Origin: Bacillota bacterium
GTDB lineage: Bacteria; Bacillota; Dethiobacteria; Dethiobacterales; Dethiobacteraceae
Reading direction: 5' to 3'
Assembly (NCBI GenBank): GCA_012523945.1
Contig: JAAYSO010000105.1
Span: forward strand, 10,072 to 74,071
DNA length: 64,000 bases
The notes below the pieces were generated by a model. That model saw nothing but the letters and a program-made list of their open reading frames with translations. It was not told where the DNA came from and did not search any database. The position numbers and the translations under genes were made by a program. Shown in pieces: positions 2,714 through 64,000 of this stretch (within the stretch, counting starts at the first letter, position 1; every line of letters begins with the position of its first letter).

Positions 2714-4924
2714 ATGAAAGTGCAAAAAATTATCAGCCGGTTAAAAGAAAAAAATAAAACTTCTACCGTTTATGATACACGCTTTTGGCAAATCATGCGC
2801 AAAGGGTGTTGGCTGGCAGCAGGGGCAGCAAGTATTGTGGGCGGCTTGGGGGTGCCCACAGGGCTTGGCCTTTTTTGGGATCTTGTCTTCTATTTTACCC
2901 TTCACCTGGTCCTGTTTTCAGTGGTTACCAAACTTTTCACCCTTTTGCTTTCCTTTCTTCCTTTGCCTGTTCCCCGCTTATTTCTTGGCAGTATGCTTTA
3001 TACAGGTATTTTGGTTTGTTTTTTGCTCCGGTTTGCCCACACCACAATCTTATTTGCCGCTCTCATTGCCGTAGCTTATATGCTTTTAAGTTTTGTTTTT
3101 GGGCTGGTTTTAAACTTTTTTGCCGCGAAAAACATCAGTTTCAAATTTAAGCTTGTCTTTGCCGTCCTTTTGGTAGTGCTTTTAGTTTTCTCTGCCGGTA
3201 AAAATAAGCACAGCCACCTGCCTGGGTTGGATATGGGTGAGCCTTCTCACTATATTTGTGCCGATCCCGGCAGTAATCCCGGCCTGCCGGGGCCCTATAA
3301 ATTCCAGAATTTTACTTACGGCAGCGGTAAAGATAAACACCGCAGGGAATTTGGCCCTGACGTCCAGGTGCTTACTCCTTCCGTAAATGCCTCATTATAT
3401 ATTAAAGCAGAAGAATGGCCGCGCCTCAGGACTTGTTTTTGGGGTTTTACGGAAACTAACCTGCCCCTTAACGGCCGCGTCTGGATGCCGGAAGGAGAAG
3501 GTCCTTTCCCTTTAATGCTGATCGTCCATGGCAATCATACCATGGAGTACTTTTCTGACGCCGGCTACGCTTACCTGGGGGAATTATTGGCAAGTCGCGG
3601 CTACATTGCTGTTTCCGTTGATGAAAACTTTCTCAATTATTCCCACTGGTCAGGTATCCCGGATAATGATATGAAAGTAAGGGCATGGCTTTTAATCCGG
3701 CACCTTTTGCAGTTGCAAACATTCAGCGCTACCCCCGGCAACCCGTTTTACCAAAAAGTTGACTGGCAAAAAGTTGCTTTGGCAGGGCACTCCCGGGGCG
3801 GGCAGGCCGCTGCCATGGCTGCAGACTATAAACGCTGGTTTGCCGATGACCCTTCTCTTGCCGGCTTTGAAAAGGTCAAAGTGCAGGCAGTAATTGCGCT
3901 GGCTCCCACCGATACCACCATTGACGGCAAAAAAGCCAGGCTGCATGATACTTATTACCTGGTGTTGCACGGAGGTCACGATGCAGACGTCAATACTTTT
4001 GCCGGCGATAAACAGTATACACGCTGTGCCTTTTCCCCAGGCTCGGAAAAATTTAAAGCTTCCCTCTATATCGGCCAGGCTAATCACAGCCATTTTAATA
4101 CCGACTGGGGCAGCATGGACAACTCCTTGCCGCAAGGCTTGTTTTTAAATCGCAAAACCATCTTGGCGGCAAAGGCACAAAGGGAAATTACTCAAGTTTA
4201 TGTTTCTGCTTTTTTGGAGCTGGCCCTTAAGGGACAAAAACAGTACCTGCCCCTTTTTCTTGACTGGCGCTGCGGCCAGGACTGGCTGCCTCAAGCCTAT
4301 TATGTCAACCGCTATGAAAGCGGAAAGTTTATTCCTCTAATTACTTTTACAAGCAAGAGCAGTAAAGAAAAATTTAGTTATGGCGTTGTTGCGGAAACAG
4401 ACGGTTTCTCGTATTGCGAAATTGAAGAAGCCCGGGATCGCCGCGGCAAAAGCAAGGGCTTTTCCGGACTGACTCTTGCCTGGGAACAAAATGCTGCCTA
4501 TACGATTCACCTTTCGGAAACTTACCGCCGGCACCGTCTGGCGGAAACACCAAAATTCTTTGTCCTCTCCCTGGCTAATTTGGAAAAAGATCTGGCTACA
4601 GAGCAAAACCGGAAACATACTCCACAGATCGAGTTGGAGCTAACCGGAAATGTAAGTGTCCGGCTGCCACTCTCTGAATTCATGCCTGTTCCGCCACAGT
4701 TTTATACTCAATATACAATTTTGCCTTATTTCGATCAGGTCATAAAAAAAGACAAATATCAAGAAGCGGCAGAAGCAGTTTTTCAAACTTATACCTTGCC
4801 CCTGTTTGCCTTACAAAAAATTAATCCGGATTTCAATCCGGACAGTATAACAGAGATAACATTCCATTGCTACGGGGGCCCCGGCAAAATCATGCTGGAA
4901 AAAGCCGGTTTCAGCTCTCCTTAG
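2714..4924 (+). CDS. Membrane-anchored alpha/beta hydrolase family protein
   Basis: 736 aa. The N-terminal ~170 aa contain several hydrophobic helices. Nucleophile elbow is GHSRGG in VALAGHSRGGQAAA. LMLIVHGNH is a preceding strand typical of the fold. Specific function not recognised. Confidence 0.7.
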   Translation: MKVQKIISRLKEKNKTSTVYDTRFWQIMRKGCWLAAGAASIVGGLGVPTGLGLFWDLVFYFTLHLVLFSVVTKLFTLLLSFLPLPVPRLFLGSMLYTGILVCFLLRFAHTTILFAALIAVAYMLLSFVFGLVLNFFAAKNISFKFKLVFAVLLVVLLVFSAGKNKHSHLPGLDMGEPSHYICADPGSNPGLPGPYKFQNFTYGSGKDKHRREFGPDVQVLTPSVNASLYIKAEEWPRLRTCFWGFTETNLPLNGRVWMPEGEGPFPLMLIVHGNHTMEYFSDAGYAYLGELLASRGYIAVSVDENFLNYSHWSGIPDNDMKVRAWLLIRHLLQLQTFSATPGNPFYQKVDWQKVALAGHSRGGQAAAMAADYKRWFADDPSLAGFEKVKVQAVIALAPTDTTIDGKKARLHDTYYLVLHGGHDADVNTFAGDKQYTRCAFSPGSEKFKASLYIGQANHSHFNTDWGSMDNSLPQGLFLNRKTILAAKAQREITQVYVSAFLELALKGQKQYLPLFLDWRCGQDWLPQAYYVNRYESGKFIPLITFTSKSSKEKFSYGVVAETDGFSYCEIEEARDRRGKSKGFSGLTLAWEQNAAYTIHLSETYRRHRLAETPKFFVLSLANLEKDLATEQNRKHTPQIELELTGNVSVRLPLSEFMPVPPQFYTQYTILPYFDQVIKKDKYQEAAEAVFQTYTLPLFALQKINPDFNPDSITEITFHCYGGPGKIMLEKAGFSSP

Positions 4925-11697: not shown

Positions 11698-12831
11698 ATG
11701 CATATTTTTGTTAACCGCTTAAAATGCTTGCTGCGGGAAAAAGAAAACATCTTTTGGACCATGGCTTTTCCGCTCATCTTGGCCATAATGTTCAATCTTG
11801 CTTTTTCCAATTTAAACAAGGGCGAAACTTTCCAAACTATTGAACTGGCCGTTGTCAACAATGCAGACTGGCAACAGGAGTCGTACTTAAAAACAGCACT
11901 GGAAGAGGCTTCCGCCGGCAATACTAAACTTTTTAACTTAACTTTTACTTCACAAAGTGAGGCAGAAAATTTGCTGCAGCAAAATGCTGTTGACGGCTAC
12001 CTAGAGGTGACGGCAAAGCAGCTGAAACTCATTGTCAATGACTCGGGAATTAAACAAAGTATCATTAAAAGTTTTCTTGACAGCTACCTGCAGACTGCCG
12101 CGACTGTTAACACCATTTTAGAAAACAAGCCGCAAAAACCGGAGCAATTACTGCATAGCACCGGTGAGCGCCGGCAATATGTGAGGGAAGTTTCCGGCAC
12201 AGCGGCAGAACCTAACAGTATCCTCAACTACTTTTATTCTCTTATTGCCATGGCTTGTTTTTTTGGCGGTTTCCTTGGCTTAAACGAGATTACCCGCATT
12301 GAAGCAAACCTTTCCCCACTGGCTGCCAGAATTAATATTGCCCCGGTGCATAAACTTAAAGCTTTTTTTTCCAGCTTCAGTGCTTCTTTGCTACTACATC
12401 TTGCGGAAATGTTTATTCTCCTTCTTTTCTTGCGCTATGTACTCAAAATTGATTTTGGCCCTAAAAGTTTCTATGTGGTTTTAACCACAATTGTAGGCTC
12501 TATTACCGGTCTTTCCTTTGGCGCTTTTATTAGTGTCCTGGTAAAAAAAGCAGAAAACATGAAAATTGCCATCCTTGTTGCTGCTACCATGACAGGCTCA
12601 TTTCTGGCCGGAATGATGTATGCGGAAATGAAATATCTTGTTGCCAAGCATCTTCCCCTGCTTGCTTATTTAAACCCGCTAAATTTACTGACAGACGCTT
12701 ATTATAGCCTTTACTATTATGATACTCTTACCAGGTACCTGCAAAATTTGGGTATTCTCATTAGTTTTGCTTTGCTCTTTTGTCTCGGCACCTACTTTAT
12801 GATTAGGAGGCGTAAATATGCAAGTCTTTAA
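11698..12831 (+). CDS. ABC-2 family permease
   Basis: 377 aa. One N-terminal TM helix, a large extracytoplasmic loop, then a C-terminal cluster of TM helices. RBS is a GAGGGGGGGG run. Confidence 0.8.
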   Translation: MHIFVNRLKCLLREKENIFWTMAFPLILAIMFNLAFSNLNKGETFQTIELAVVNNADWQQESYLKTALEEASAGNTKLFNLTFTSQSEAENLLQQNAVDGYLEVTAKQLKLIVNDSGIKQSIIKSFLDSYLQTAATVNTILENKPQKPEQLLHSTGERRQYVREVSGTAAEPNSILNYFYSLIAMACFFGGFLGLNEITRIEANLSPLAARINIAPVHKLKAFFSSFSASLLLHLAEMFILLLFLRYVLKIDFGPKSFYVVLTTIVGSITGLSFGAFISVLVKKAENMKIAILVAATMTGSFLAGMMYAEMKYLVAKHLPLLAYLNPLNLLTDAYYSLYYYDTLTRYLQNLGILISFALLFCLGTYFMIRRRKYASL

Positions 12832-45112: not shown

Positions 45113-47053
45113 ATGCCAACATTATTTGAGGAAGTAAAAATAGGTAATTTAGAGTTAAAAAACCGTGTTGTCATGGCGCCCATGGGCTTTGCCCATACAG
45201 ATCCTGACGGCGGCTATTCTGAACGTCAAATTGAGTATTATGTAGAGCGGGCCCGGGGCGGTTTTGGCCTCATATACCCCACGGCCACCATGGTAACAAC
45301 AGAGTTTGAACCTGCCCCCATGCCCAACGTTTTGGAAAACTATTCACAAGCAACACGTCTTGCCATTCTTTGTGAAAAAGTCCACCACTACGGAGCAAAA
45401 GTTTGTTCTCAACTGTCGCTGGGTTTAGGGCGTGTCTCCTTTATTGACCCGTATACAGCACCAAAATCAGCCAGTGAAGTCCCCTCCTTTTTCTTCCCTA
45501 ATTTAATGTGCACCCCATATACTAAAGAAGAAATTAAATTTTTAGTGGAGAAATTCGGCAATGCGGCCAGGCTGGCCAAAAACGCCGGTGTTGACGCCAT
45601 TGAAATTCATGCCTACGGCGGCTATTTAATTGACCAGTTTCTCACACCTCTGTGGAATAAGCGTACAGACGAATATGGCGGTAGTTTAGAAAACAGGCTG
45701 CGCATCGTTTACGAGCTGCGTGACGCTGTCTGGAACAATTGCGGCAAAGATTTCCCCCTCTTAATTAAATTGACGCCGGACCATAAAATTGAAGGCGGCA
45801 GGACCCTGGAGGAAGGCATTGAGATGCTGAAAGCTTTGGATGATGCCGGCTTTGCGGCTTTTCATTTGGACCTGGGTACATATGAATGCTGGTATAATGC
45901 CGTAACAACAGTGTACCAGGAAGAAGGCGTGCAGCTCTACCTGGCAGAAGCAGCCAAAAAAGCCGGCATTAAAACACCACTTTTTGTACAAGGCAAACTG
46001 GGCGATCCTGTTCTGGCAGAAAAAGTCGTCAGCACCGGCCTTGCTGAACTGATAGGGTTGGGGCACCCGTCTTTAACGGATCCTCATTGGCCTGCCAAAG
46101 TACAACAGGGGCGTTTTGAAGATATTGTTCCTTGTATTGGCTGTAATGAATGTATTTATACTAATCTGATGAACCAGAGATTTGCCTGCGCCGTTAATCC
46201 GCGCATGGGTATGGAGCGAGATTACAATTTATCACCTGCCAACGAAAAGCTGTCCGTCCTGGTTGTGGGAGCGGGTCCGGGGGGAATTACAGCTGCCATT
46301 ACTGCGGCCGAGCGCGGTTTTGAAGTGGAACTGTGGGAAAAATCAAATCGCCTGGGAGGTACTCTGGTAGCAGCCGGTGTGCCTAAATTCAAAGAAGCAG
46401 TGGCCAAATATGTAGAATATTTAAGGACACAGTTATATAAAAGAAATGTTAAGGTACGCCTCAACAAAACTGCAACTACTGAAGAAATCTTAAAGAAAAA
46501 CCCGGATGCAGTAATCATTGCCGGCGGGGCCAAACCTATTATCCCGCAAATTCCCGGCAGGGAAAAAATGCATGTGGTAGAAGCCACACAGATGCTGTTG
46601 CAAGGCGACTGCCCGGGAGAAAAAATTGTGGTTTTAGGCGGTGGTCTGGTTGGCTGTGAGGCTGCTCTACATCTGGAGAATTTAGGTAAGAAGGTCACCA
46701 TTGTAGAAAAACTGGATGATATCCTGCAGACGGTAAAACATGCAACGAATAATGACCAGGCTTTAAGACATTTACTCTCTGAATCAAATATTACCATTCA
46801 TACCGGGGCACTTTTGTCAGCCATTGATACCGGTAAAGTCACTATCGAAAAAGACGGACAAAAAACCGATCTGCCCTGTGATACATTAATTATTGCCATC
46901 GGTTATCATGCTGATAAAAGTCTGGCACAATCTCTGAAAGGGAAAATAGATAAAGTCTTTACCATCGGTGATAATTTAAGACCGGCCAAAGTCATTGATG
47001 CCGTCCATGAGGGCTTCCATACAGCAAGACTTCTGGAAGAGCTGACAACATAA
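45113..47053 (+). CDS. 2-enoate reductase / 2,4-dienoyl-CoA reductase-like flavoenzyme (OYE FMN domain, 4Fe-4S, FAD/NAD(P) domain)
   Basis: 646 aa. OYE-like N-terminus LKNRVVMAPM...HAYGGYLIDQF, Cys cluster CIGCNECI...C, dinucleotide motifs VVGAGPGG and VLGGGLVGCE. RBS AAGGAG. Confidence 0.85.
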   Translation: MPTLFEEVKIGNLELKNRVVMAPMGFAHTDPDGGYSERQIEYYVERARGGFGLIYPTATMVTTEFEPAPMPNVLENYSQATRLAILCEKVHHYGAKVCSQLSLGLGRVSFIDPYTAPKSASEVPSFFFPNLMCTPYTKEEIKFLVEKFGNAARLAKNAGVDAIEIHAYGGYLIDQFLTPLWNKRTDEYGGSLENRLRIVYELRDAVWNNCGKDFPLLIKLTPDHKIEGGRTLEEGIEMLKALDDAGFAAFHLDLGTYECWYNAVTTVYQEEGVQLYLAEAAKKAGIKTPLFVQGKLGDPVLAEKVVSTGLAELIGLGHPSLTDPHWPAKVQQGRFEDIVPCIGCNECIYTNLMNQRFACAVNPRMGMERDYNLSPANEKLSVLVVGAGPGGITAAITAAERGFEVELWEKSNRLGGTLVAAGVPKFKEAVAKYVEYLRTQLYKRNVKVRLNKTATTEEILKKNPDAVIIAGGAKPIIPQIPGREKMHVVEATQMLLQGDCPGEKIVVLGGGLVGCEAALHLENLGKKVTIVEKLDDILQTVKHATNNDQALRHLLSESNITIHTGALLSAIDTGKVTIEKDGQKTDLPCDTLIIAIGYHADKSLAQSLKGKIDKVFTIGDNLRPAKVIDAVHEGFHTARLLEELTT

Positions 47054-51190: not shown

Positions 51191-52552
51191 TTGGCTGATT
51201 TTCTGGCTGTAGCAGGATTTTTAGGTTTTTTTGCAGGCTGTTTTTTACTGGTCTATAATATGTTGAAAAAGAAAAAGAAAAAAACTGCTGTTCTAATTAT
51301 TTTCTTATCATTATTTGCCTTTGTTTTCGGTATTGCTTTTTCCGAGACGTCAAATAATGATACCGGCACCACTGCCCAACCGGTAGCATCAGAATCGCAG
51401 GAAAACGAAAACAGGATTGAAACCAATAAAGATGAACCGGACCCCGCAGCTCCTGCAGTAAACGGCACAGATCCGGGAAAAGACACAGGCGATCTTACGC
51501 CGTCTGCCCCTACAAGCGGTCTTAAAGTTCATTTTATTGATGTAGGCCAGGGTGACTCTATTTTTGTCCAAACCAAGACAAAAAATATACTTATCGATGC
51601 GGGGGAGCGCGGCAGCACGATAGTTAATTATCTACATAATCTAGGTGTTACGGAAATAGATTTGATCCTAAGTACCCACCCGCATGCTGACCATATCGGC
51701 GGATTAATTGAAGTGCTGCAATCTTTTCCGGTAAAAGAAGTTATTGACCCTGGTGTTCCCCACACGACAAAAACATTTGAAACATATCTGACTCTAATTG
51801 ATGAAAAAGAAATCAAATTTACAGAAGGGCGAGCCGGTCTCTCCCGGACGTTAGAACCCGAAATCTATATGGAAATTCTCCATCCCGCGTCCCCTTCTGA
51901 AACTAATCTTAATGATGCTTCCCTTGTGACCAGAATTATTTGCGGGCAAATTGCTTTTTTATTAACGGGAGATATTGAAATTGAGGCGGAAAAAGAAATT
52001 TTAGGCCGCAAAAGCACTCTGGGCAGCACAGTTTTAAAAATTGCCCACCACGGCAGTCGCACAAGCACATCATATGCTTTTCTGCAGGCCGTTAATCCCG
52101 AAGTTGCTGTGATCATGGCGGGCAGTAGCAATACTTATGGTCATCCACATGCAGAAATTTTGCAAAGACTCACAGAGGCCAAGGTAAAAATCTACCGTAC
52201 AGATCTCCACGGCACCATTGTCATCACCACAGACGGACAAGATTATGACATCAATATTAAGGAGCCGTACAGCTACGTTCTCCCCAAGGAACCTGCCGGA
52301 CAGGTTTCAACAACAAAACCAAAACCAACACCTGCCCCGGAAACAAAACCTGCTCCCACACCTGAAACCGAACCGGCGACTGAACCTGAACCAACCAAAA
52401 AGCTGTATGTGGGTAGCAGCAAAGCTGATAAATACCATTATCCAACCTGCAGACATGCAAAGAGAATTCTACCGGAAAATGAAGTCTGGTTTGCATCAAT
52501 ACAAGAAGCAAAAACTCAAGGTTATGTCCCCTGCGGCGTCTGCAAACCATAA
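51191..52552 (+). CDS. Membrane-anchored ComEC-C-terminal-like MBL-fold hydrolase with a Pro/Thr-rich linker and a C-terminal Cys motif domain
   Basis: 453 aa with a TTG start. TM anchor. VHFIDVGQGDS...STHPHADHIGG (MBL HxHxDH). PTPAPETKPAPTPETEP linker. C-terminal YHYPTCRHAKRI...GYVPCGVCKP. Confidence 0.8.
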   Translation: MADFLAVAGFLGFFAGCFLLVYNMLKKKKKKTAVLIIFLSLFAFVFGIAFSETSNNDTGTTAQPVASESQENENRIETNKDEPDPAAPAVNGTDPGKDTGDLTPSAPTSGLKVHFIDVGQGDSIFVQTKTKNILIDAGERGSTIVNYLHNLGVTEIDLILSTHPHADHIGGLIEVLQSFPVKEVIDPGVPHTTKTFETYLTLIDEKEIKFTEGRAGLSRTLEPEIYMEILHPASPSETNLNDASLVTRIICGQIAFLLTGDIEIEAEKEILGRKSTLGSTVLKIAHHGSRTSTSYAFLQAVNPEVAVIMAGSSNTYGHPHAEILQRLTEAKVKIYRTDLHGTIVITTDGQDYDINIKEPYSYVLPKEPAGQVSTTKPKPTPAPETKPAPTPETEPATEPEPTKKLYVGSSKADKYHYPTCRHAKRILPENEVWFASIQEAKTQGYVPCGVCKP

Positions 52553-54774: not shown

Positions 54775-55030
54775 GTTAAGCCCTCTGTTCCGGACGGAAC
54801 AGAGGGCAAAGATTGCGGTACCACCTCTGTGACGGAAATTCCTCACGAAATTTCCCTCAGTGAGTGTAAGTAAATACACTCTGACGCTGTAGCGGGCGCA
54901 CCCGGCAAACCCTACTGTTATTTCAGGCTGCAGCTCCGGGATGTATTCGTTTCAGTACATCTGTATCCTTACACCTGCCGGATACTCTCTGTGAAGATGT
55001 TAACTGAACTACTTCTTCCCTTCATTACTT
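54775..55030 (-). promoter_or_regulatory. T-box leader with Tyr (UAC) specifier controlling tyrS
   Basis: On the minus strand: ATGAAGGGAAGAAGTAG, CAGAGAGT...GGTGTAA, and specifier GAA-TAC-A. T-box sequence is AGAGGTGGTACCGCAATC. A 12-bp GC-rich hairpin gccctctgttcc/ggaacagagggc follows. Confidence 0.85.
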
Positions 55031-55061
55031 GCCAGAATTAATTTTTTTCATGTTAGCCTTT

Positions 55062-55092: not shown

Positions 55093-57546
55093 TTACATTT
55101 CCAAAACGGTCCGGGAAATTAATTCATTTTGACTTGTCACATGCAACTCAACAAAGTAGGCGGAAAAGCCTGCTATCCTGACCACCAGGTCCCTATATTC
55201 ATCCGGATTCTTTTGTGCCTCCCGCAGGGTATCGGCGGAATGCACATTAATCTGCACTTCCATACCACCCAAATTAAAGTATGTTTGTATCAATTGGCTT
55301 AATTTCTTGATCCCGTCTTCGCCCCTCAGACAGGAGGGACTAAATTTCATATTGAGCAGGGTCCCGTTGGCAAAAGCGTCCTGTTTTAAGGTGGCAACAG
55401 ATCTGATAATGGCAGTGGGGCCGTTTTTATCCATCTGCTGCACCGGAGAAATGCCGTCGGAAAGCGGCACACCGGCATTACGCCCGTCCGGGGTGGCGGC
55501 AGTCATCATGCCAAACATCACATGGGCCGTGACAGGGAACAGGGCTGCAGTGTAACGTCCCCTGGGACCGGTAAAAGAGGTGACAATTTCCGCATATTTT
55601 TCCGCGGCCCAGGCAGCCCACTTGTCAACTTCAGGGTTGCCGTTGCCATAATGCAATTCAGAGCCTTTAATATACTGCTGCAGCTCCTCGTAACCTTCCC
55701 AGTTATTAAGCAGGGCATCATACAATTCACGGGTGGTGCATTTTTTTGTATCAAAGCAAAGATGTTTGATCATAAAGAGCGAATCGGCAATATTGCCAAT
55801 GCCTATGCCGGGAATACCTGTACCGTTATATTTGGCTCCGCCGTACATGACATCTTTGCCTTTTTCCATACAGCCTTCCATGGTGGCGGAAACTACCGGC
55901 AACGGTAAAACTTCACGCAGCACATATTCGGCATTATTATTGATAATCGCATGCCACCTGAGGAAGAATTCCATCTGTTTATGGAAAGCATCCAGAACAT
56001 CTTCAAAAGTTTCCATCTCATAGAGATAACCTGTAGGCAGACCAACCCGCTGCTTAATCATTTCGGGTTCCTTGTCCCCTTCTTTCGGGGCACCGAAACG
56101 CAGCGGTACAGGTAAGTGGCCGTCATTAATAGCCAGCCACAACGCATTAGGCAGGTTAATATAAGAGACACTGCCGGTACCGCCGCAGGCAGGCCAGTCA
56201 TTACCAGTGCCACCCGGTTCCACACAGCCTATCAGGGAATAGTCGCGGGCGTCTTCCAGGGTAAAACCTCTTTTTTGCATGGCCGGGATAATGACATCGT
56301 CATTTTCAAAGGTGGGAATACCGCCGCAAATTTTACTGGTCTCAATGGCTGCTTCCCACAGTTCAGGCGGTGTGTTTTTATGCACCCTGAGTGCCAGCGG
56401 TGTATGCAATTTGAGGCGGCTGCTGCTTTGCAGCATCATATAACTTACCTTATTAGAGGCGTCATTGCCGTCCTTATCGACGCCGCCCAATGTCATTAAC
56501 TGTCCCGTTGTATAACCGGGAGCCGATTGGGTGGCACCATAACTCCAGGGTTTATTCATTTCTACTACTTTCAGGAAAAAGAGATCCAGCAGTTCCTGTG
56601 CATATTCTTCAGTGATGGTGCCGTCTTGTAAATCTTTTTCTAAAAATTCTCCCAGGTACTGATCCACACGGCCGAAGCTAATTCCATGCAGATTTGCTTC
56701 CAGGCACAAGCAAGTCTGGTACATATACAAGCATTGCAGTGCTTCCACAAAATTGCGGGCCGGGTTTTCCATAACCCAATTCAGTGTTTCCACCATCATT
56801 GCCAGTTCTTTTTTACGTTTCGGGTTTGTTTCCACTGCCAGTTTTTCTGCAGCCAGCGCTGCATAGCGTTTCGTCAAGGTAATCATGCCGTCACAGACAA
56901 TGGCAACAGCACGGTAAAAATTATACTGTTCATTAGTATTGCCGGGCATGGTTTGGGTTAAAATTTCCGCCATTTTCCGTTCCGCTTCTTCTTTAATGGC
57001 TTTAAAACCAACTTTGATGGCTTTCTCATAACCGGCCACAAAATGGCCTACGGGGGTATCACTGATACACATGCGCCCAATCATGGTTACACCGTTAAAA
57101 TCATGCGGTGCATACTCTTCAGGGTAGTAGGCCTGTGTTTTGGCATGCGTACTTTCCCCCTGCAGCCAGTAATCAATGGTGTCTTTGATATATTCAATAT
57201 CTTCGTCGGCTACATCATAAGGATCTATGTCCCGGGTACGGATGGAGCCGCTGCAAATTTCATCCTTAATAAAAGTAACACAATTTTCCGGGTACAGTGC
57301 CCCTGCTTTAAATTTAGCCGATTGGGCGCCTACAATTACTTCATCATCATCTATGCGCACAGGAATTTTAGAAAAGATTTCATGCATTGCTTTGGCCCGG
57401 CGCAGAATACCGTTAAGTTCAGGATGATTCATGTAAAATTCGGTGAGGATTTTATAACGCGCGATACAAACTTCCGGTTTTGTCTTGCGCCAACGTTCAC
57501 GCAGTCTTGCCACTCGATCAGTAACAGGTTTTAGTTTCCAAGTCAT
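55093..57546 (-). CDS. Glycyl radical enzyme, PFL2/glycerol-dehydratase-like family (GRE-2)
   Basis: 817 aa from the ATG at 57546 (RBS GGAGG). The ORF-track start at 57618 adds 24 aa with no RBS. Cys loop LIGCVEPGGTGNDWPACGG. Glycyl radical motif VVRIAGFSAYFVEL near the C-terminus. Confidence 0.9.
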   Translation of the reverse strand: MTWKLKPVTDRVARLRERWRKTKPEVCIARYKILTEFYMNHPELNGILRRAKAMHEIFSKIPVRIDDDEVIVGAQSAKFKAGALYPENCVTFIKDEICSGSIRTRDIDPYDVADEDIEYIKDTIDYWLQGESTHAKTQAYYPEEYAPHDFNGVTMIGRMCISDTPVGHFVAGYEKAIKVGFKAIKEEAERKMAEILTQTMPGNTNEQYNFYRAVAIVCDGMITLTKRYAALAAEKLAVETNPKRKKELAMMVETLNWVMENPARNFVEALQCLYMYQTCLCLEANLHGISFGRVDQYLGEFLEKDLQDGTITEEYAQELLDLFFLKVVEMNKPWSYGATQSAPGYTTGQLMTLGGVDKDGNDASNKVSYMMLQSSSRLKLHTPLALRVHKNTPPELWEAAIETSKICGGIPTFENDDVIIPAMQKRGFTLEDARDYSLIGCVEPGGTGNDWPACGGTGSVSYINLPNALWLAINDGHLPVPLRFGAPKEGDKEPEMIKQRVGLPTGYLYEMETFEDVLDAFHKQMEFFLRWHAIINNNAEYVLREVLPLPVVSATMEGCMEKGKDVMYGGAKYNGTGIPGIGIGNIADSLFMIKHLCFDTKKCTTRELYDALLNNWEGYEELQQYIKGSELHYGNGNPEVDKWAAWAAEKYAEIVTSFTGPRGRYTAALFPVTAHVMFGMMTAATPDGRNAGVPLSDGISPVQQMDKNGPTAIIRSVATLKQDAFANGTLLNMKFSPSCLRGEDGIKKLSQLIQTYFNLGGMEVQINVHSADTLREAQKNPDEYRDLVVRIAGFSAYFVELHVTSQNELISRTVLEM

Positions 57547-57662
57547 CTTGCCTCCAATCTTTTTGCAACGAAAACAGTTCTGCTCCTGTTTTTGTGCAGC
57601 AGCCGCTTTTTCTAGCAAGCAGCAAGCTATTTTTCTCTTGTTTGAAAGGGAAAGGAGAATGT

Positions 57663-57689
57663 TGCCTCAAAACAGTCCGTTTTGAGGCA
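57663..57689 (-). other. Inter-GRE hairpin (possible weak terminator or processing site)
   Basis: Minus strand tgcctcaaaac-ggact-gttttgaggca, an 11-bp stem 8 nt after the GRE-3 stop. No clean U tract. Confidence 0.35.
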
Positions 57690-57696
57690 GCACTCT

Positions 57697-60150
57697 CTAA
57701 AGTGAATTCTCCGTCCTTCTGATCAGGTCGTCCTGACCGTCACGGCCCAGCTCCACAAAGTAAGCTGAATAACCGGCAATGCGCACCACCAGGTCACGGT
57801 AGGATTCAGGATCTTTTTGCGCGGCACGCATTGTTTCAGCATCAACAATATTGTACTGGATCTCAAGACCGCCGCGGTTAAAATAAGCTTGCGTCAACTG
57901 GCGCAGTTTCTGCTTGCCGTCCTCGCCATTGAGGGCGGAAGGATGAATACGCAGGTTGAGACAGACGCCGTTGACAAATTTTTTGTGATCATAACAGGTA
58001 GCGGAAATACAGACTGCAGTGGGACCGTTACGATCTCTGCCCTGTACCGGAGAGGCAGCGTCAGCAATAGGTTCGCCTGTGCGCCTGCCGTCCGGTGTGG
58101 CCCAAGTTGTGTAGCCTTGTGCGATATGGTCGGCAGCACTGTATAGTCCCGCTTTATAAACGGAAGCTCTTTCACTATAGCACTTTTTACAGATCTCATA
58201 ATAGGTATCACATACCCATTTCATCATTTCGTCGGCATAAGGATCAGCATTGCCAAAATGAGGGACTTCATTAATAATTGTCTGCCGCAGCTCTTCATAA
58301 CCTTCCCAGTTGGCCATAATAGCGTCATACATTTCCCGTGCCGTGCACAGTTTTTTCTCAAAGACCATGTACTTAATGGCAGTGAGGGAATCGGCAATGG
58401 TAGCCAGGCCGCTGGCAGTACCACCGTATGAATTGTACTTGGCGCCGCCCCAGGTGCAGTCCATACCTTTTTCCATACAGCCTTCAAGGGAAATGGAAAG
58501 ACCGGCTTCGGGGGCATAATGCTGAATTATATGCTCCACATAGTTATCAAAAGTAACTTGCAGTTTAGTCACATAATCAAGAATTTCTTTATAGGCACTC
58601 TTTACCTGTTCAAAATCAGTCATCTCATAGAGATAACCGCGCTGGATTTTACACTGTTCGCCGTTATAAGGGTTGATGCCGTTATTAATGGCCATGCCCA
58701 GTACCACACCATGGTGGATGCTGGCATATGGCGGTGAGACACCGTTACAGGCTGGATAGTCATTACCGCTGCCTACAATTTCCTGACAACCGATAATGCA
58801 GTAATCCCGTGCATCCTCCAGCGTAAAGCCAAGCTCCCGCCTGAGAGCCGGAATTATGACATCGTCATTTTGGAATAAGGGGATACCGCCACAAACTTTT
58901 GTAGTTTCAATGGCCAAATCCCATAATTCCACCGGTGTATTTTTATTAATGCGCAGGGAAATGGTAGGATCATGCAGGCGCAGCCGTCTCATGGTATCCA
59001 GCACCATATAAGTAACAGGGTTGGTAGCATCTGCACCTGTTTTAGGATCTACCCCGCCAATAGTAGTGTGCTGGTAAGTATTGCCGATACCGGTGGTTTC
59101 CGCCAGTTTGCCGGTGCCGCCGGCATAGAAACAGTTTGCTTTCAGGAAAAAGGCATCCAGATATTCCTGGGCCGTATCCAGATCAATGCGGCCTGCTTCC
59201 AGGTCCGCCTTTAGAAACGGCCAGGTATACTGGTCAATGCGTCCAAAAGCAGGCCCCGGGAAACTGGTCTCGGAAAATAAGTAAAGCTGGTACATAATAG
59301 TCAGCTGCAAAGCTTCCCAGAAAGTGCGGGCAGGATTTTCTGAAATCCACATTAAGCCGTCACCCATCATTTTCAGCTCTGCTTTGCGTTTTTCATCCTG
59401 ACACTCTTCCAGCTTACGGTAGCATTCTTCACCGTACCGTTTAATCATGATGGAAATGGCATCACAGGTGATAACCACAGACTTATAGAAAAGATACTTT
59501 TTAACTTTATCGCCCATGAGGTTACCGTTATGCTCGTCAATCCAGTCCTGGGCTTGCTTTCTGATGGCACCGATACCGGTGTTAATAATTTTTTTGTAGC
59601 CGGGAGAGATGTGGCCGGACTGCATCATAATCAGCGGTGAGCCCGGAACATTTTTACAGACATTTAGCCTGCACAGCTCATCATAGCCGTCAGGCTGCCA
59701 GGCATCGGCAATCCTTGTCAGTACATTCTCATCCCAGTAATCTTTAATGCTTTTTAGTTTCTCCACATCTTCGGGAGAAATGGTCAGCCGTACCATATCA
59801 GATTCCGGGTTATGGTACAGGCCGTCTTCCCCTAAATGCCAGGCTCCGGGAAAATCAGGATTGGTAAAAGGTTCAAGAAAAACACCATGCCATTCAACCA
59901 GATAAGTATTACCGAGAAAATGTTCTCCCCGGTTACCCACAATTACTTCAAAATCTTCTACGCGTACTTTCTTTTTCTTACAGTACTCCAACATTGCCAG
60001 CGGTTTTTTAATCACAGGAAGCACATGCTGGTACTTTTTATATGCTTCCGTAATAATCACGGCGCGTTCAGCATCATTACGAATAACTCTGTCGCGGATT
60101 AAATCCCGCATGTACTGAATGCGCTCCGTTACAGGTCTTGACTTGTGCAT
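57697..60150 (-). CDS. Glycyl radical enzyme, PFL2/glycerol-dehydratase-like family, divergent paralog (GRE-3)
   Basis: 817 aa. RBS AAGGAGGA. Cys loop IIGCQEIVGSGNDYPACNG. Glycyl radical motif VVRIAGYSAYFVEL. Confidence 0.9.
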   Translation of the reverse strand: MHKSRPVTERIQYMRDLIRDRVIRNDAERAVIITEAYKKYQHVLPVIKKPLAMLEYCKKKKVRVEDFEVIVGNRGEHFLGNTYLVEWHGVFLEPFTNPDFPGAWHLGEDGLYHNPESDMVRLTISPEDVEKLKSIKDYWDENVLTRIADAWQPDGYDELCRLNVCKNVPGSPLIMMQSGHISPGYKKIINTGIGAIRKQAQDWIDEHNGNLMGDKVKKYLFYKSVVITCDAISIMIKRYGEECYRKLEECQDEKRKAELKMMGDGLMWISENPARTFWEALQLTIMYQLYLFSETSFPGPAFGRIDQYTWPFLKADLEAGRIDLDTAQEYLDAFFLKANCFYAGGTGKLAETTGIGNTYQHTTIGGVDPKTGADATNPVTYMVLDTMRRLRLHDPTISLRINKNTPVELWDLAIETTKVCGGIPLFQNDDVIIPALRRELGFTLEDARDYCIIGCQEIVGSGNDYPACNGVSPPYASIHHGVVLGMAINNGINPYNGEQCKIQRGYLYEMTDFEQVKSAYKEILDYVTKLQVTFDNYVEHIIQHYAPEAGLSISLEGCMEKGMDCTWGGAKYNSYGGTASGLATIADSLTAIKYMVFEKKLCTAREMYDAIMANWEGYEELRQTIINEVPHFGNADPYADEMMKWVCDTYYEICKKCYSERASVYKAGLYSAADHIAQGYTTWATPDGRRTGEPIADAASPVQGRDRNGPTAVCISATCYDHKKFVNGVCLNLRIHPSALNGEDGKQKLRQLTQAYFNRGGLEIQYNIVDAETMRAAQKDPESYRDLVVRIAGYSAYFVELGRDGQDDLIRRTENSL

Positions 60151-60401
60151 CTGCTGCTCCTCCTTGTGGTAATAATTCCGGAACCTTTTACAGAAGCTGG
60201 CCAGGCACAGGGCAAAGACATTCTTTATCTCTTAATAATTGATTGTATCATATTTTTAACATCGTCAATAGTTATAAAAATAACTTAACTGAGCTTATTG
60301 CCACCCCTTTATGTTACAGCCCTGACTATCCTGCAACCCCTTAACAGTCCCCACCGGTTAGGTGAGAAGGCGAATCAAGATTGATATAGTTTTCTAACCG
60401 A

Positions 60402-60428
60402 CAAAAAAATGCCGCCTCAAAGGGCGGC
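60402..60428 (-). terminator. Rho-independent terminator after the MoaF-like gene
   Basis: Minus strand gccgccc-tttg-aggcggc, followed by ATTTTTTT. Confidence 0.65.
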
Positions 60429-60439
60429 AAGAGTTCATG

Positions 60440-62170
60440 TTATTTACGTTTTTTCTCAAAATATTTTAAAATATTGTATCCATAAAGGGGACGCACATAA
60501 GCACCCAGGGTGGTTAGCATTACGCTTAAATCATCCCCTTGTCCGCCTATTCCGAAGAAGAAACCGGAATCCTGCCAGAGCTGCGGATTAAGGATAAAAG
60601 TTCCCTGGTTGCCGTTGCAGGTATCTTCCGTCCAGCTGATAAGATAAGCATCCTCACGCAATTTGATATAAAGACAGGGAGAACTCCACATTACCCCGCC
60701 AGCGTTATTGGGCATCATAATTGTCCAGGAGCAAGATTCGGGAGAACTATAAACATGGACAGACTGCATAAAATCACTATAGACATTAGCTTGTGCTCTG
60801 CCCACCAATTCTGTGGTAAATCCATGGCGTTCCACAGCCGGCGGTGTGGGGCCTCCTTCCATTTCCAGCACACCAAAAATTGCTCTGCGTCCTACTTCCC
60901 AGGCTTTCCGTCCGTTGCCCAGCCGGGCATCCACACAAGTGACAAGAGCTTTGGAAAAGTCAATGGCATGGGTCAGGCAGCGCAGCGGATTGGTACCGGT
61001 ACAGATATGGCTGAAAAGGATAATATCCTTTGCCGGCTCAAAACCCTGGTAAATCTCTTCATGCCAGTTTTCTTCGCCTTCTTCCCTCCATTTTAAAGTG
61101 CTGGTATCAATAATTTCATATTCCCAGGCGGGGCCGTCATCAAAACGGAGAGTAAATTTTTTTCCTACCATGTAATCGGTAACTTCCATGGTATTCATAC
61201 TGGCCATAATGGACCGGCCTTCAAAAACTTTGCAATTATTCTTGATAATTTCCTCCACTTGTTCTGCGGTCAGATCAGGATATAAAAAGCGGGGCCGGTA
61301 GGAGGGACGGGTGCCTTTGGGATCATCAGCTTTCGGTTTTACACCTTCCGGCAGTTCCGTACCGTAGTCAGAAAGGGGTTCCAAATTAGTTACCTTACCT
61401 GTCACTTCACCGCAGCCGCTATACACCTGGTAATCCAGCTCGTCTTCAAGATTGAAACCCAGGCGCACGCCGATATGCTTTACTTCCATCAGATCTATGA
61501 CTTCTAAAACGAAAGTGCCGGAATATTCACAGTCAACACGGGAAAAGATGTAGTATTTATCATTAATTTTAATGAAGTCAGAAGGCCCGGTTATAGTAAT
61601 ACCGCCACGCGGATGACTCAATTCAACATAGGATGACCAGACCACAGAAGGGAAGAAGTAAAGCATTTCTTCACCGTTATCATTGCTCCAGTAAGTACCT
61701 AAACCTTCAAGCCTGTTAGTTAAGGCATGCCGTTTTTCCGGTACTGTTTCCCCGGTATCCACATAACCAAACATATAGTGGCGCCAGACTTCCCGCTTAT
61801 CATGTTCAAAGCCGCAGAACCAAACTTCAAACACTGTAACCAAGTTGGTTTTGCTGTCAATAACGACATTGTAGCCGCGGACGGTGCCGGGAACCATATG
61901 TGTAAACAAAATAATTCCATTATGTTCTTTAGCTGTGTAAGGTGCTTCAATGGCTGCCTGACCGTCTTCTTTTAAGGTCAAACTGTCTTTAGTAAAGGAG
62001 TATTCCAATGTGGGGCCGTCATCCAGTATAATTTTCAGTGTTTTTCCGGCCAGGACTTCAGATGTTCCGGAAAAAGCAATGGCTTTCGGGACAGGTGTCA
62101 GCTTTGCCTTAATCTGCTCCTCCGTGAGCCGGGTATACCGGTCATAGAAAGTTGCACGAAAATAATTCAT
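60440..62170 (-). CDS. Tandem-duplicated MoaF-like (calycin/PAD-like fold) protein
   Basis: 576 aa from the ATG at 62170 (RBS AAAGGAG); the ORF-track start at 62257 has no RBS. Two repeats each carry a MoaF_N-like part (GKTLKIILDDGPTLEY / GKKFTLRFDDGPAWEY). Each also carries a MoaF_C-like part (KRHALTNRLEG... / ERHGFTTELVG...). Confidence 0.65.
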   Translation of the reverse strand: MNYFRATFYDRYTRLTEEQIKAKLTPVPKAIAFSGTSEVLAGKTLKIILDDGPTLEYSFTKDSLTLKEDGQAAIEAPYTAKEHNGIILFTHMVPGTVRGYNVVIDSKTNLVTVFEVWFCGFEHDKREVWRHYMFGYVDTGETVPEKRHALTNRLEGLGTYWSNDNGEEMLYFFPSVVWSSYVELSHPRGGITITGPSDFIKINDKYYIFSRVDCEYSGTFVLEVIDLMEVKHIGVRLGFNLEDELDYQVYSGCGEVTGKVTNLEPLSDYGTELPEGVKPKADDPKGTRPSYRPRFLYPDLTAEQVEEIIKNNCKVFEGRSIMASMNTMEVTDYMVGKKFTLRFDDGPAWEYEIIDTSTLKWREEGEENWHEEIYQGFEPAKDIILFSHICTGTNPLRCLTHAIDFSKALVTCVDARLGNGRKAWEVGRRAIFGVLEMEGGPTPPAVERHGFTTELVGRAQANVYSDFMQSVHVYSSPESCSWTIMMPNNAGGVMWSSPCLYIKLREDAYLISWTEDTCNGNQGTFILNPQLWQDSGFFFGIGGQGDDLSVMLTTLGAYVRPLYGYNILKYFEKKRK

Positions 62171-62318: not shown

Positions 62319-64000
62319 TTACTTATTGTTCTTGTCCAAAGCTTGTTTTACCCGTTTTATATTTTCTTCAGACAGAACATCAAGCAAATTATTTTGCGGT
62401 GCCACCATGTTATCCCGGTATGCCTGCATGATCTTTTCACTGGCAGTTGTAATTTCTTCCTTCAGTTTAGCGGCGGACATGACAGCATTACCTGCGCCTC
62501 TGATAATTATTTGCTGCAGGTTGTCCGAAGTGGCAACAATGATTTTATATTTTTTCCGGTGCTTATGGGAGAATTTTTCTATGAACTGGTCAGCCGTCTG
62601 TGCTTCCCTGGTAAAAACCACAAGCACATTATCATAAGTAAAAATTTCTTCCCGGTGGCGCTGAACCCGGTAAGCATCAAAAACAACCATAAGTTTGCAT
62701 TGGCGAATACTCTGGTATTTATTTAGACAATCAAGCAACTTTAATCTGGCGGCATCAAGACTGTCCTCAGCCAAAGCTTTTAGTTCAGGCCAGGCAAAAA
62801 TAATATTATAGCCGTCCACCAGCAGATATTCCTCTTTGGGCTGAACTTGCAGTTTTGCTTTTATAATATTATCGCTATCTTCCGGTTTTAAACGGTATTG
62901 CTTTAAAGCTTTTTCTTTATGCCTGAACACTTTTGCTTTTTTATTAGCATAAAAAGTTTTATCAAAGATTTTTTTTATTTCCTCCGGATCAATCCAGTTT
63001 CTTTCTTCCTCATTAGTTTTAGGTTTCTTGTTTTTTTGCGGCTTTGCTTTTTGAAAAATACTGGGCACATGCATATAATTTTTAACCTGGTCCCATTTGA
63101 CCGTAAATGTTTCACCGTTTTGATAAAAAACTGAACTTGCAGGGTTTTCCGCATCACTTTCTGCCTCATACCCTATCATGACCAACACTTCGTCTGGATT
63201 GTGGCAAAGTTCGTAGCCTGCCGGACTGTAAAAAAGCCTGCCGTGGCCTTCACTGTAATTTCTCACTTCTGCCTGATATTTGCGTAAATTGACAACAGGT
63301 GCCTTACCAACCAGTACTGCCAGCTCCCCCTCCAGATGCGAAACCTGGCAGGTACCGTGCATTCTCTCAATATCTGTCATGGCTCGTCCAATTAAACTTT
63401 GCGGCAGTTCCAACTCAAAGGAATAGTATGGTTCCAATAATACAGACTTTGCTTCCATTAAACCCTGGCGCAGGGCACGGGAGGCAGCCTCTTTTAAGGC
63501 GGTGCCGTCAGTATATTTGTTGTGACCGCGGCCTGCCGCTAAAGTAATTTTCAGATCGGTAACAGGAGCACCGGCCAGCACTCCTTTAGGCACATTTTGC
63601 TGCAGGCATTTTAAAACTATATTTTTCCAGTCTTGTGCCAGCATCTCCTCACTGCAGGCATCAGCAAACAAAAGACCGCTTCCCGGCTCTGCCGGCTCCA
63701 GTAAAAGATGGATTTCTGCATATTGACTAGCCGTGGCAAAATGGCCTACTCCCTCAACCGGACCGGTAATGGTTTCCTTATAAACAATTTTGCCGAAATC
63801 AAAGGACACATCCAAGTCAAGGCGGTCTTTAAGCAAACTCTGTAAGATTTCCACCTGCATTTCTCCCATCACTTGCACCCTGATTTCCTCTGCCTGTTCG
63901 TCCCAGGTAATTTGCAGTTGCGGATCTTCTTCTTCCAGTTGACGCACTTTGGGCAGTATGGCCCTGGGGCTGTGGCCTGCCGGCGGCAGTAATTGATAAG
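62319..64000 (-). CDS. EF-G/TetM-like translational GTPase (domains III-V visible) fused to a C-terminal Rae1/YacP-type NYN ribonuclease domain; 5' end beyond the window
   Basis: The frame stays open upstream of the ORF-track GTG to position 64000 (...YQLLPPAGHSPRAILPK-VRQLEEEDPQL). EF-G/TetM-like part includes LLEPYYSFELELPQ...GHGRLFYSPAGYE. A Lys-rich linker follows. NYN motifs are LLVDGYNIIFAWPELK, VVFDAY, VVFTREAQTADQFIEK, VATSDNLQQ. Confidence 0.8.
   Translation of the reverse strand, partial: YQLLPPAGHSPRAILPKVRQLEEEDPQLQITWDEQAEEIRVQVMGEMQVEILQSLLKDRLDLDVSFDFGKIVYKETITGPVEGVGHFATASQYAEIHLLLEPAEPGSGLLFADACSEEMLAQDWKNIVLKCLQQNVPKGVLAGAPVTDLKITLAAGRGHNKYTDGTALKEAASRALRQGLMEAKSVLLEPYYSFELELPQSLIGRAMTDIERMHGTCQVSHLEGELAVLVGKAPVVNLRKYQAEVRNYSEGHGRLFYSPAGYELCHNPDEVLVMIGYEAESDAENPASSVFYQNGETFTVKWDQVKNYMHVPSIFQKAKPQKNKKPKTNEEERNWIDPEEIKKIFDKTFYANKKAKVFRHKEKALKQYRLKPEDSDNIIKAKLQVQPKEEYLLVDGYNIIFAWPELKALAEDSLDAARLKLLDCLNKYQSIRQCKLMVVFDAYRVQRHREEIFTYDNVLVVFTREAQTADQFIEKFSHKHRKKYKIIVATSDNLQQIIIRGAGNAVMSAAKLKEEITTASEKIMQAYRDNMVAPQNNLLDVLSEENIKRVKQALDKNNK

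Follow-up and report, generated by a model that had tools for sequence, protein, structure and literature searches.

Two tandem glycyl radical enzymes of a Dethiobacteraceae bacterium, placed in sister clades without a characterized member and possibly served by a distant activase

Glycyl radical enzymes (GREs) perform reactions that are otherwise closed to anaerobes, and whole clades of them are still without a function (PMC13450708; Imrich et al., 2026). The same source lists glycerol dehydratase, propanediol dehydratase, HpfG, HypD, HpyG, HpzG, CutC, IslA/IseG, and HpsG as the characterized eliminases and HplG, YbiW, and PflD as the characterized isomerases, and gives Cys-x-Glu as the motif of the 1,2-eliminases and isomerases. 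In glycerol dehydratase, Glu435 deprotonates the substrate hydroxyl and His164 protonates the leaving hydroxyl (PMC13450708). Additionally, cross-activation has been described between enzymes with matching glycine loops, namely by the pyruvate formate-lyase activase (PFL-AE) on TdcE and, with loops that differ only in a Tyr/Phe exchange, by IBSS-AE on BSS (PMC13450708). Here, we describe two tandem GRE genes, GRE-3 and GRE-2, in a stretch of 64,000 nucleotides (hereafter, the window) of contig JAAYSO010000105.1 from a member of the family Dethiobacteraceae (Bacillota). The window also holds part of a third paralog, GRE-1, and a GRE activase of the radical S-adenosylmethionine (radical-SAM) type. 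Lengths are given in amino acids (aa):

57697-60150, minus strand: GRE-3, 817-aa glycyl radical enzyme with Cys455 and Glu457 (GCQE), His180, and Gly793 (RIAGYSAYF)
55093-57546, minus strand: GRE-2, 817-aa glycyl radical enzyme with Cys441 and Glu443 (GCVE), His168, and Gly793 (RIAGFSAYF)
2-1396, minus strand: GRE-1, cut by the window start, with its N-terminal 465 aa in the window; divergent from the activase
1609-2562, plus strand: GRE activase (radical-SAM), 317 aa, with CX3CX2C and a ferredoxin-like insert

The best-supported reading, to which we give a probability of roughly 0.6, is that GRE-2 and GRE-3 are activated by the product of 1609-2562. The activase, as the partner of GRE-1, would install the radical on Gly793 of both enzymes in trans. 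We also consider it rather probable from the comparisons below that GRE-2 and GRE-3 are two functional paralogous enzymes of the PFL2/glycerol-dehydratase-like branch.

The tandem genes and their placement

A first-pass annotation of the window had described two co-oriented 817-aa GRE reading frames 150 nt apart; these coordinates proved exact, and the catalytic Cys loop and the RIAG(Y/F)SAYF motif are intact in both. GRE-3 starts with ATG behind AGGAGG, and GRE-2 with ATG behind GGAGG. A longer GRE-2 frame opening at TTG (to 57618) was dismissed because it has no ribosome-binding site and is unused in the ortholog at locus L003. Both proteins matched the Pfam families PFL-like (PF02901; E values of 3e-176 for GRE-2 and 4e-151 for GRE-3) and Gly_radical (PF01228; 4e-33 and 9e-29 for the two enzymes), and both combine the PFL-like barrel, the C-terminal glycine radical domain, the RxxG(F/Y/W) loop, and the catalytic Cys of the glycyl radical superfamily. 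Measured against the L003 orthologs, dN/dS was 0.041 for GRE-3 and 0.046 for GRE-2 at a dS of ~0.75; both genes are under strong purifying selection.

No curated NCBIfam cut-off was reached by GRE-2 or GRE-3. The respective scores were 593 and 486 bits with the subfamily model TIGR01774 (cut-off 678), 562 and 440 bits with HpfG (NF048009; 1000), 523 and 415 bits with NF048011 (1000), which like the HpfG model covers the group of C-S lyases and dihydroxypropanesulfonate (DHPS) dehydratases IslA/IseG, HpsG, and HpfG, 518 and 450 bits with HypD (NF043068; 1100), and 512 and 417 bits with CutC (TIGR04394; 1050). The arylacetate decarboxylase models NF033715 and NF033718 gave 307-382 bits (cut-offs 1100-1150), and the pyruvate formate-lyase model TIGR01255 gave 137 and 133 bits (994). 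Among solved structures, GRE-2 was best matched by the long-form CutC 9F3W (504 bits) and glycerol dehydratase (495 bits), and GRE-3 by glycerol dehydratase (399 bits) with HypD second; the X-succinate synthase structures 4PKC and 9O8U reached 202-233 bits to the two enzymes. The structure 9RCO, deposited as a 'glycyl radical protein', is a GRM3 propanediol dehydratase. GRE-2 and GRE-3 scored 607 bits against each other, above every characterized eliminase or isomerase; all of those listed in PMC13450708 were covered by the PDB match list or an NCBIfam model, and all stayed below 607 bits.

In a neighbor-joining tree of 48 homologs and four reference families (glycerol dehydratase, propanediol dehydratase, CutC, and HypD, with sequences transcribed from HMMER alignments), the GRE-3 clade was sister to the GRE-1/2 clade, apart from the four reference families, and GRE-1 and GRE-2 fell in separate subclades. 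Identity to the references in this set was 25-40%, with 25-37% for GRE-2 and GRE-3. By these comparisons, GRE-2 and GRE-3 are placed in two sister clades without a characterized member, the tree holding four reference families. Nothing in the literature that was searched links the GRE-3 or the GRE-1/2 clade to a function. Thus, a phylogenetic check that the first-pass annotation had proposed puts neither enzyme in a characterized single-function clade, by the cut-offs, the PDB matches, and the tree with four references alike. Full-length GRE-1, read from the source contig (L019), has 808 aa and the glycine loop RVAGFSAYF. Its identity to GRE-2 amounts to 63-66%, and that of GRE-3 to either GRE-1 or GRE-2 to 41-42%, which agrees with the first-pass view of GRE-1 as the closest paralog of GRE-2. 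The lack of a local small subunit, noted there as well, also stands: no such gene was called adjoining GRE-2 or GRE-3, nor were small reading frames of the X-succinate synthase beta or gamma type called beside them.

Gene neighborhoods and activation in trans

The activase at 1609-2562 scored 345 bits with TIGR02494 (cut-off 174), carries the Pfam domains Radical_SAM and Fer4, and lies 52.5 kb from GRE-2 and GRE-3. We searched six frames of the window and of 10 kb past position 64000 by phmmer with the window activase (filters off) and by a CX3CX2C scan, and found no second activase there. Therefore, the earlier statement holds that no activase frame lies between 52 and 64 kb and that the only one, at 1609-2562, is divergent from GRE-1; the same is true of the 10 kb past the window end, where an activase just outside might have been sought. 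The genes called in that flank encode a fusion of an EF-G-like GTPase with an NYN ribonuclease, a family III CoA-transferase, a GNAT acetyltransferase, a CDP-alcohol phosphatidyltransferase, an LPG-synthase, and FeoB, with no radical-SAM gene among them. Annotation for activases and GREs covered contig positions 21-99.6 kb, or ~78 kb of the 210-kb contig, which belongs to a biogas-type metagenome assembly, and revealed no other radical-SAM activase, no further GRE, and no bacterial microcompartment shell genes among the called genes; dha/pdu genes and a cut cluster are absent from the locus.

Directly downstream of the activase and co-oriented with it is a gene for a 736-aa alpha/beta-hydrolase (2714-4924, plus strand; Pfam Chlorophyllase), with weak matches to DLH and PET-hydrolase structures and to the 'protein-asparaginase' 9XG1. 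No counterpart of it adjoins the GRE-1 orthologs elsewhere.

In a protein search, orthologs of GRE-3 (57-94% identical) accounted for no fewer than 119 clusters with an identity of 60% or higher, and a metagenome scan gave at least 323 loci with one. Their hosts include Bacillota, Desulfobacterota, Spirochaetota, Coriobacteriia, Acidobacteriota, Sporomusa acidovorans, and Acetobacterium. Neighborhoods were compared in 98 loci holding a GRE-3 ortholog, with counts limited to those with enough flank:

Activase within 1.5 kb of the GRE-3 ortholog: 4 of 50 loci (8%) with at least 1.5 kb on both sides
Activase within 5 kb of the GRE-3 ortholog: 5 of 29 loci (17%) with at least 5 kb on both sides
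Another GRE, usually of GRE-1/2 type, within 5 kb: 12 of 29 loci (41%) with at least 5 kb on both sides
Order GRE3, GRE2: L003/L030, L008, and L077
Order GRE1-like, GRE3: L107
Order GRE3, activase, GRE1-like on one strand: L074, L075, and L083
Order GRE3, iron-dependent alcohol dehydrogenase, GRE1-like, activase on one strand: L041
GRE3 facing a GRE1-like gene and its activase: L097
Order GRE1-like, aldehyde dehydrogenase, uroporphyrinogen-decarboxylase-like (URO-D-like), TetR, DUF169, GRE3 on one strand: L052, 1001-10454

Where an activase was present, it mostly stood beside the GRE-1-type gene. In Sporobacter termitidis and two other genomes (L027-L029), the GRE-2 orthologs, 73-80% identical to GRE-2, are solitary, and the nearest 10 kb lack a GRE activase. 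Because GRE-3 orthologs rarely, and the GRE-2 orthologs of L027-L029 never, adjoin an activase, the tandem layout without an activase is the normal state of these clades. The first-pass annotation had taken the pair as unusual on the ground that a GRE normally lies beside its own activase; this expectation fails here, since non-adjacency is the rule for both clades (in the GRE-3 clade, an activase was within 1.5 kb in 4 of 50 loci).

The recurring pairs raise the question of whether GRE-2 and GRE-3 serve one pathway, their substrates being either two isomers of a single compound or consecutive intermediates. A shared pathway would explain why GRE-3-type and GRE-1/2-type genes are found together. 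Tandem or near-tandem pairs indeed recur in L003/L030, L008, L077, L107, L041, L052, L074, L083, and L097, the same-strand cluster of L052 joins both GRE types with an aldehyde dehydrogenase, and paralogous GREs for isomeric substrates have precedents in YbiW/PflD and HpyG/HpzG (PMC13450708). However, no second GRE is close by in 17 of the 29 GRE-3 loci that extend 5 kb or more to each side, the GRE-2 orthologs of L027-L029 stand alone, and the paralog next to GRE-3 varies between the GRE-1 type and the GRE-2 type. We regard a single pathway as possible but doubtful.

Activation in trans is favored because GRE-3 is rarely beside an activase and often near a GRE of the GRE-1/2 type, and because one-strand clusters exist in which an activase lies between GRE-3-type and GRE-1-type genes. 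It is favored further because the activases of the mixed operons form one family, the glycine loops are alike, and cross-activation has precedent. The activases of the L074, L075, L083, L041, and L097 clusters are 53-80% identical to that of the window. The last 73 residues of GRE-3 and GRE-1 are 67% identical, compared with 40% for the rest of the protein, and over the 21 residues around the radical Gly the three window enzymes are 76-86% identical, with the consensus (K/E/S)YRDLVVR(V/I)AG(F/Y)SAYFVEL; the same 21 residues are 48-62% identical to those of glycerol dehydratase, propanediol dehydratase, and HypD. The possibility, raised in the first-pass annotation, that the GREs share one activase thus receives support of an indirect kind from operons that hold the same activase family between GRE-3-type and GRE-1-type genes.

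Some findings weigh against activation by 1609-2562. The search spans ~78 kb of the 210-kb contig, and a second activase may lie elsewhere. In addition, an activase is directly upstream of the GRE-3 ortholog in L009 and in Sporomusa acidovorans (L023), and the activase of Sporomusa acidovorans is the most distant, being 47% identical to that of the window. Accordingly, GRE-2 and GRE-3 might be served by another activase elsewhere in the genome. This would suit the separate, divergent activase of Sporomusa acidovorans, the examined stretch being under half of the contig, and a passage of PMC13450708 in which activases are described as specific to each GRE. Against it stand the lack of another activase in the ~78 kb around the genes, the operons elsewhere that pair one activase with a GRE-3-type and a GRE-1-type gene, and the near-identical glycine loops of the three window enzymes. 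We consider such a separate activase unlikely, and slightly more so than the single pathway, and retain activation by 1609-2562 as the preferred reading.

Active site, gene context, and transcription signals

Residues were surveyed in 240 aligned homologs, comprising 119 GRE-3-type, 45 GRE-2-type, and 76 GRE-1-type sequences. Conservation was 100% for the catalytic Cys, for the Glu at +2, and for the counterpart of glycerol dehydratase His164 (His168 in GRE-2 and His180 in GRE-3), and the radical Gly was invariant. Other pocket positions differed. Of the substrate-binding residues of glycerol dehydratase, which are not retained, Ser282 corresponds to Gly in both the GRE-1 and the GRE-2 clade and to Ala, Ser, or Gly among GRE-3-type enzymes; Asp447 corresponds to Ser/Thr in the former two clades and to Pro in the latter. 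In enzymes of GRE-3 type, the residue between Cys and Glu is always Gln, Pro replaces His281, and His361, Asp674, and His675 do not vary. GRE-2 itself retains His281 and carries a His at 645, a position occupied by Asn in most members of its clade. The position of IslA Arg678, from the Arg/Gln/Arg sulfonate anchor and mapped by numbering offset only, would be Thr or Ala in the window enzymes. All three window enzymes have an insertion of 4-5 residues after the Cys loop. A second Cys in this insertion ('PAC') was rejected as a functional residue, being variable in the GRE-3 clade.

Because Cys, Glu, and His are invariant and other pocket residues differ, the alignments indicate that GRE-2 and GRE-3 have catalytic machinery of the C-O-cleaving type in common and differ in their pockets. 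In the proposed reaction, the glycyl radical at Gly793 would generate a thiyl radical on Cys455 of GRE-3 or Cys441 of GRE-2, as the conserved residues suggest. The thiyl radical would take a hydrogen from a carbinol carbon, the Glu of Cys-x-Glu would deprotonate the hydroxyl of that carbinol, and the conserved His would protonate a vicinal oxygen leaving group, with C-O cleavage (dehydration, or ether or ring opening) and a carbonyl product as the outcome. GRE-2 and GRE-3 most likely act as C-O-cleaving radical enzymes of this kind. In view of the different pocket residues, their substrates are probably different, perhaps related, and would on balance be compounds other than glycerol, propanediol, choline, hydroxyproline, isethionate, or DHPS. 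A substrate-diversified GRE family, as suggested in the first-pass annotation, fits the three distinct orthogroups with different pocket residues, and to that extent the suggestion is upheld.

Two points count against the reaction class proposed here. The residues were mapped by sequence alignment, and the mapping is ambiguous around two insertions, near which HMMER and MAFFT disagree; also, Cys-x-Glu is present in GRE decarboxylases, so that C-O cleavage is not proven by this motif. GRE-2 and GRE-3 could instead be arylacetate-type decarboxylases or other non-eliminase GREs acting on aromatic acids. The Cys-x-Glu of decarboxylases, the absence of a small subunit from AAD, and the hints of aromatic catabolism considered below (Sporobacter termitidis, URO-D-like genes, and a transhydroxylase-like molybdenum enzyme in L074) are compatible with this, but the scores to IAD, HPAD, and AAD models or structures are below the dehydratase scores and far under the cut-offs, and the invariant dehydratase His may also speak against it. 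A decarboxylase function therefore appears quite improbable. Decay of one or both genes as non-functional duplicates, which the missing local activase and the presence of three paralogs on one contig might suggest, is least credible of all, because dN/dS is 0.04-0.05 at a dS of ~0.75; the reading frames and the full set of catalytic residues are also intact, and orthologs are spread over several phyla.

No conserved accessory gene emerged near the GRE-3 orthologs: among 124 immediate neighbors and 151 Pfam families, none occurred in more than five proteins. The commonest neighbors were redox enzymes, namely OYE-type ene-reductases, short-chain dehydrogenases/reductases, iron-dependent alcohol dehydrogenases, aldehyde dehydrogenase, and nitroreductase-family proteins, which would suit a carbonyl or enone product. 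The OYE-type ene-reductase of the window (45113-47053) was rejected as a partner, as it is ~30% identical to the ene-reductases beside the orthologs. URO-D-like genes, of a family used by corrinoid O-demethylase systems, lie near GREs in a minority of loci. Sporobacter termitidis, a specialist on methoxylated aromatics that is not known to grow on other substrates, has at least two genes of GRE-2/1 type. This gene context hints weakly at redox or aromatic catabolism, and anecdotally suggests plant-derived hydroxylated or methoxylated compounds.

Two neighborhoods deserve separate mention. In L074 (4388-7830), and likewise in L075, genes for an 875-aa molybdopterin enzyme resembling pyrogallol-phloroglucinol transhydroxylase, with an AhtL-like first domain, and for a 272-aa Fe-S/CarboxypepD_reg subunit lie directly upstream of the operon of GRE3-like, activase, and GRE1-like genes. 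In the Desulfobacterota loci L006, L007, L013, and L015, a conserved hybrid sensor kinase of ~890 aa (CHASE4-PAS-HisKA-HATPase-receiver) is encoded directly upstream of, and co-oriented with, a lone GRE-3 ortholog, and may be its dedicated regulator.

The following signals were identified around the tandem pair:

60268-60242, minus strand: promoter-like element 5' of GRE-3, with TTGACG at 60268-60263 and an extended -10 element TGaTACAAT at 60250-60242
57697-57655, minus strand: stem-loop in the spacer between GRE-3 and GRE-2, an 11-bp GC-rich hairpin with its core at 57689-57663
60429-60410, followed by T7 (feature 60400-60429), minus strand: intrinsic terminator of a MoaF-domain gene, with a 7-bp stem of which six pairs are GC
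54799-55034, minus strand: tyrS T-box leader, 107.5 bits

The promoter-like block lies ~90 nt 5' of the GRE-3 start, and its spacing of 15 nt explains why a consensus scan missed it. It is kept in L003, where the GRE proteins are 93-94% identical, despite the diverged DNA around it. The terminator of the MoaF-domain gene separates that gene from the GRE-3 transcription unit, and GRE-3 and GRE-2 are probably transcribed from the promoter 5' of GRE-3, as what may be a single unit. The spacer between them has a fold energy z-score of -3.8, and its hairpin is followed by a C/T-rich tract with no clean T run; in L003 (~12460-12500), the stem is preserved and the loop differs. This hairpin might act as a partial terminator or a stabilizer, modulating read-through into GRE-2. 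A promoter, TTGCAT-17-TATAAT, begins 4 nt past the GRE-2 stop codon, ahead of the tyrS leader. No terminator was found between GRE-2 and this leader; therefore, read-through from GRE-2 would end at the T-box terminator. The tyrS T-box was also the sole RNA match, and no riboswitch or other known RNA was detected 5' of GRE-2 or GRE-3.

The MoaF-domain gene (60440-62170, minus strand) was rejected as an accessory gene: it has a strong terminator of its own, it is kept in the same lineage only, apart from a distant copy 7 kb away in L059, and it has no informative PDB match. It encodes a 576-aa protein whose MoaF N- and C-terminal domains are confined to the C-terminal 250 residues; the first ~320 residues have no Pfam match, and the lone PDB match is the uncharacterized 4Q51. 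Upstream of it, the EF-G/NYN fusion gene (62319-64000, minus strand, continuing beyond the window end; L001 5175-7832) encodes an 885-aa EF-G-like GTPase with GTP_EFTU, EF-G_D2, and EFG_III, IV, and C all present and a C-terminal NYN ribonuclease of YacP type, and is conserved in L002 and L003. On the other side of the pair, 51191-52552 (plus strand) encodes a metallo-beta-lactamase-fold protein that ends in a zinc-binding domain of Ada type as a C-terminal fusion; its Apyc1-like match is weak.

Meaning and comparison with known systems

The two sister clades are large: each comprises no fewer than 119 protein clusters with an identity of 60% or higher, and more than 300 metagenome loci in several phyla represent them. 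Comparison of the neighborhoods yields evidence that several paralogous GREs draw on a single activase family, which touches the question of activase specificity, and 1609-2562 is now named as the candidate activase for in vitro work on GRE-2 and GRE-3. Sporomusa acidovorans, Acetobacterium paludosum, and Sporobacter termitidis are cultured carriers for physiological study. As a speculative extension, which we judge improbable, the GRE-3 and GRE-1/2 clades might form a modular radical C-O-cleaving set on one hub activase in strict anaerobes (acetogens, termite-gut Oscillospiraceae, Desulfobacterota, and digester Bacillota), dehydrating or de-etherifying plant-derived hydroxylated or methoxylated compounds, with cyclitol or quinate-type polyols and glycol or aryl ethers as candidate substrates. 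The genes of Sporobacter termitidis, the redox and URO-D-like neighbors, and the transhydroxylase-like enzyme of L074 are weak hints in this direction. To our knowledge, no enzyme is known for such de-etherification or dehydration of these plant compounds in anaerobes.

Glycerol dehydratase (Clostridium butyricum DhaB1, 1R8W/1R9D) is of the same length class as GRE-2 and GRE-3, has a single subunit, and retains Cys-x-Glu and the His164 equivalent. The glycerol and propanediol dehydratases also have the glycine loop R(V/I)AG(Y/F)SA in common with the pair, whereas the window enzymes are 31-37% identical to the full-length references and 28-31% identical to the partial 5I2A, and differ by the 4-5 residue insertion after the Cys loop and by having no adjoining activase. 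CutC has Cys-x-Glu like the window enzymes, but 9F3W has Asp, which we take to be CutC Asp216, where the window enzymes and glycerol dehydratase have His. HypD, the best equivalog model for GRE-3 (450 bits; 34% identity), has His where GRE-3 has His675, but its 'WDAF' segment, with an Asp that is presumably Asp278, has no match in the window enzymes. HypD is also reported to keep the general-acid His, as His160; the HypD sequence used begins after that position.

Pyruvate formate-lyase has an adjacent Cys-Cys pair, whereas the window enzymes have a single Cys (GCVE, GCQE). YbiW/PflD and HpyG/HpzG are, like GRE-2 and GRE-3, paralogous pairs of Cys-x-Glu GREs in one organism, but they reach only 300-425 bits to the window enzymes, and the surroundings of the window pair lack genes for sugar-phosphate or hydroxyproline metabolism. 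In E. coli, YbiW and PflD each have their own adjacent activase.

For the activation proposed here, the closest parallel is that of PflA on PflB and TdcE in E. coli, in which paralogous GREs whose glycine loops match share an activase. The tdcE gene is not linked to its activase gene in E. coli. PflB and TdcE are formate-lyases with the Cys-Cys pair, whereas the window enzymes are eliminase-like, and sharing of the activase is here inferred from gene neighborhoods. GRE-2 and GRE-3 are further members of the eliminase-like branch of GREs and not a new system. The pair is ordinary in kind because uncharacterized GRE clades are numerous (PMC13450708) and because unlinked or shared activases have precedent; what is added to the known systems is that a layout of paired paralogs without an activase is shown clade-wide.

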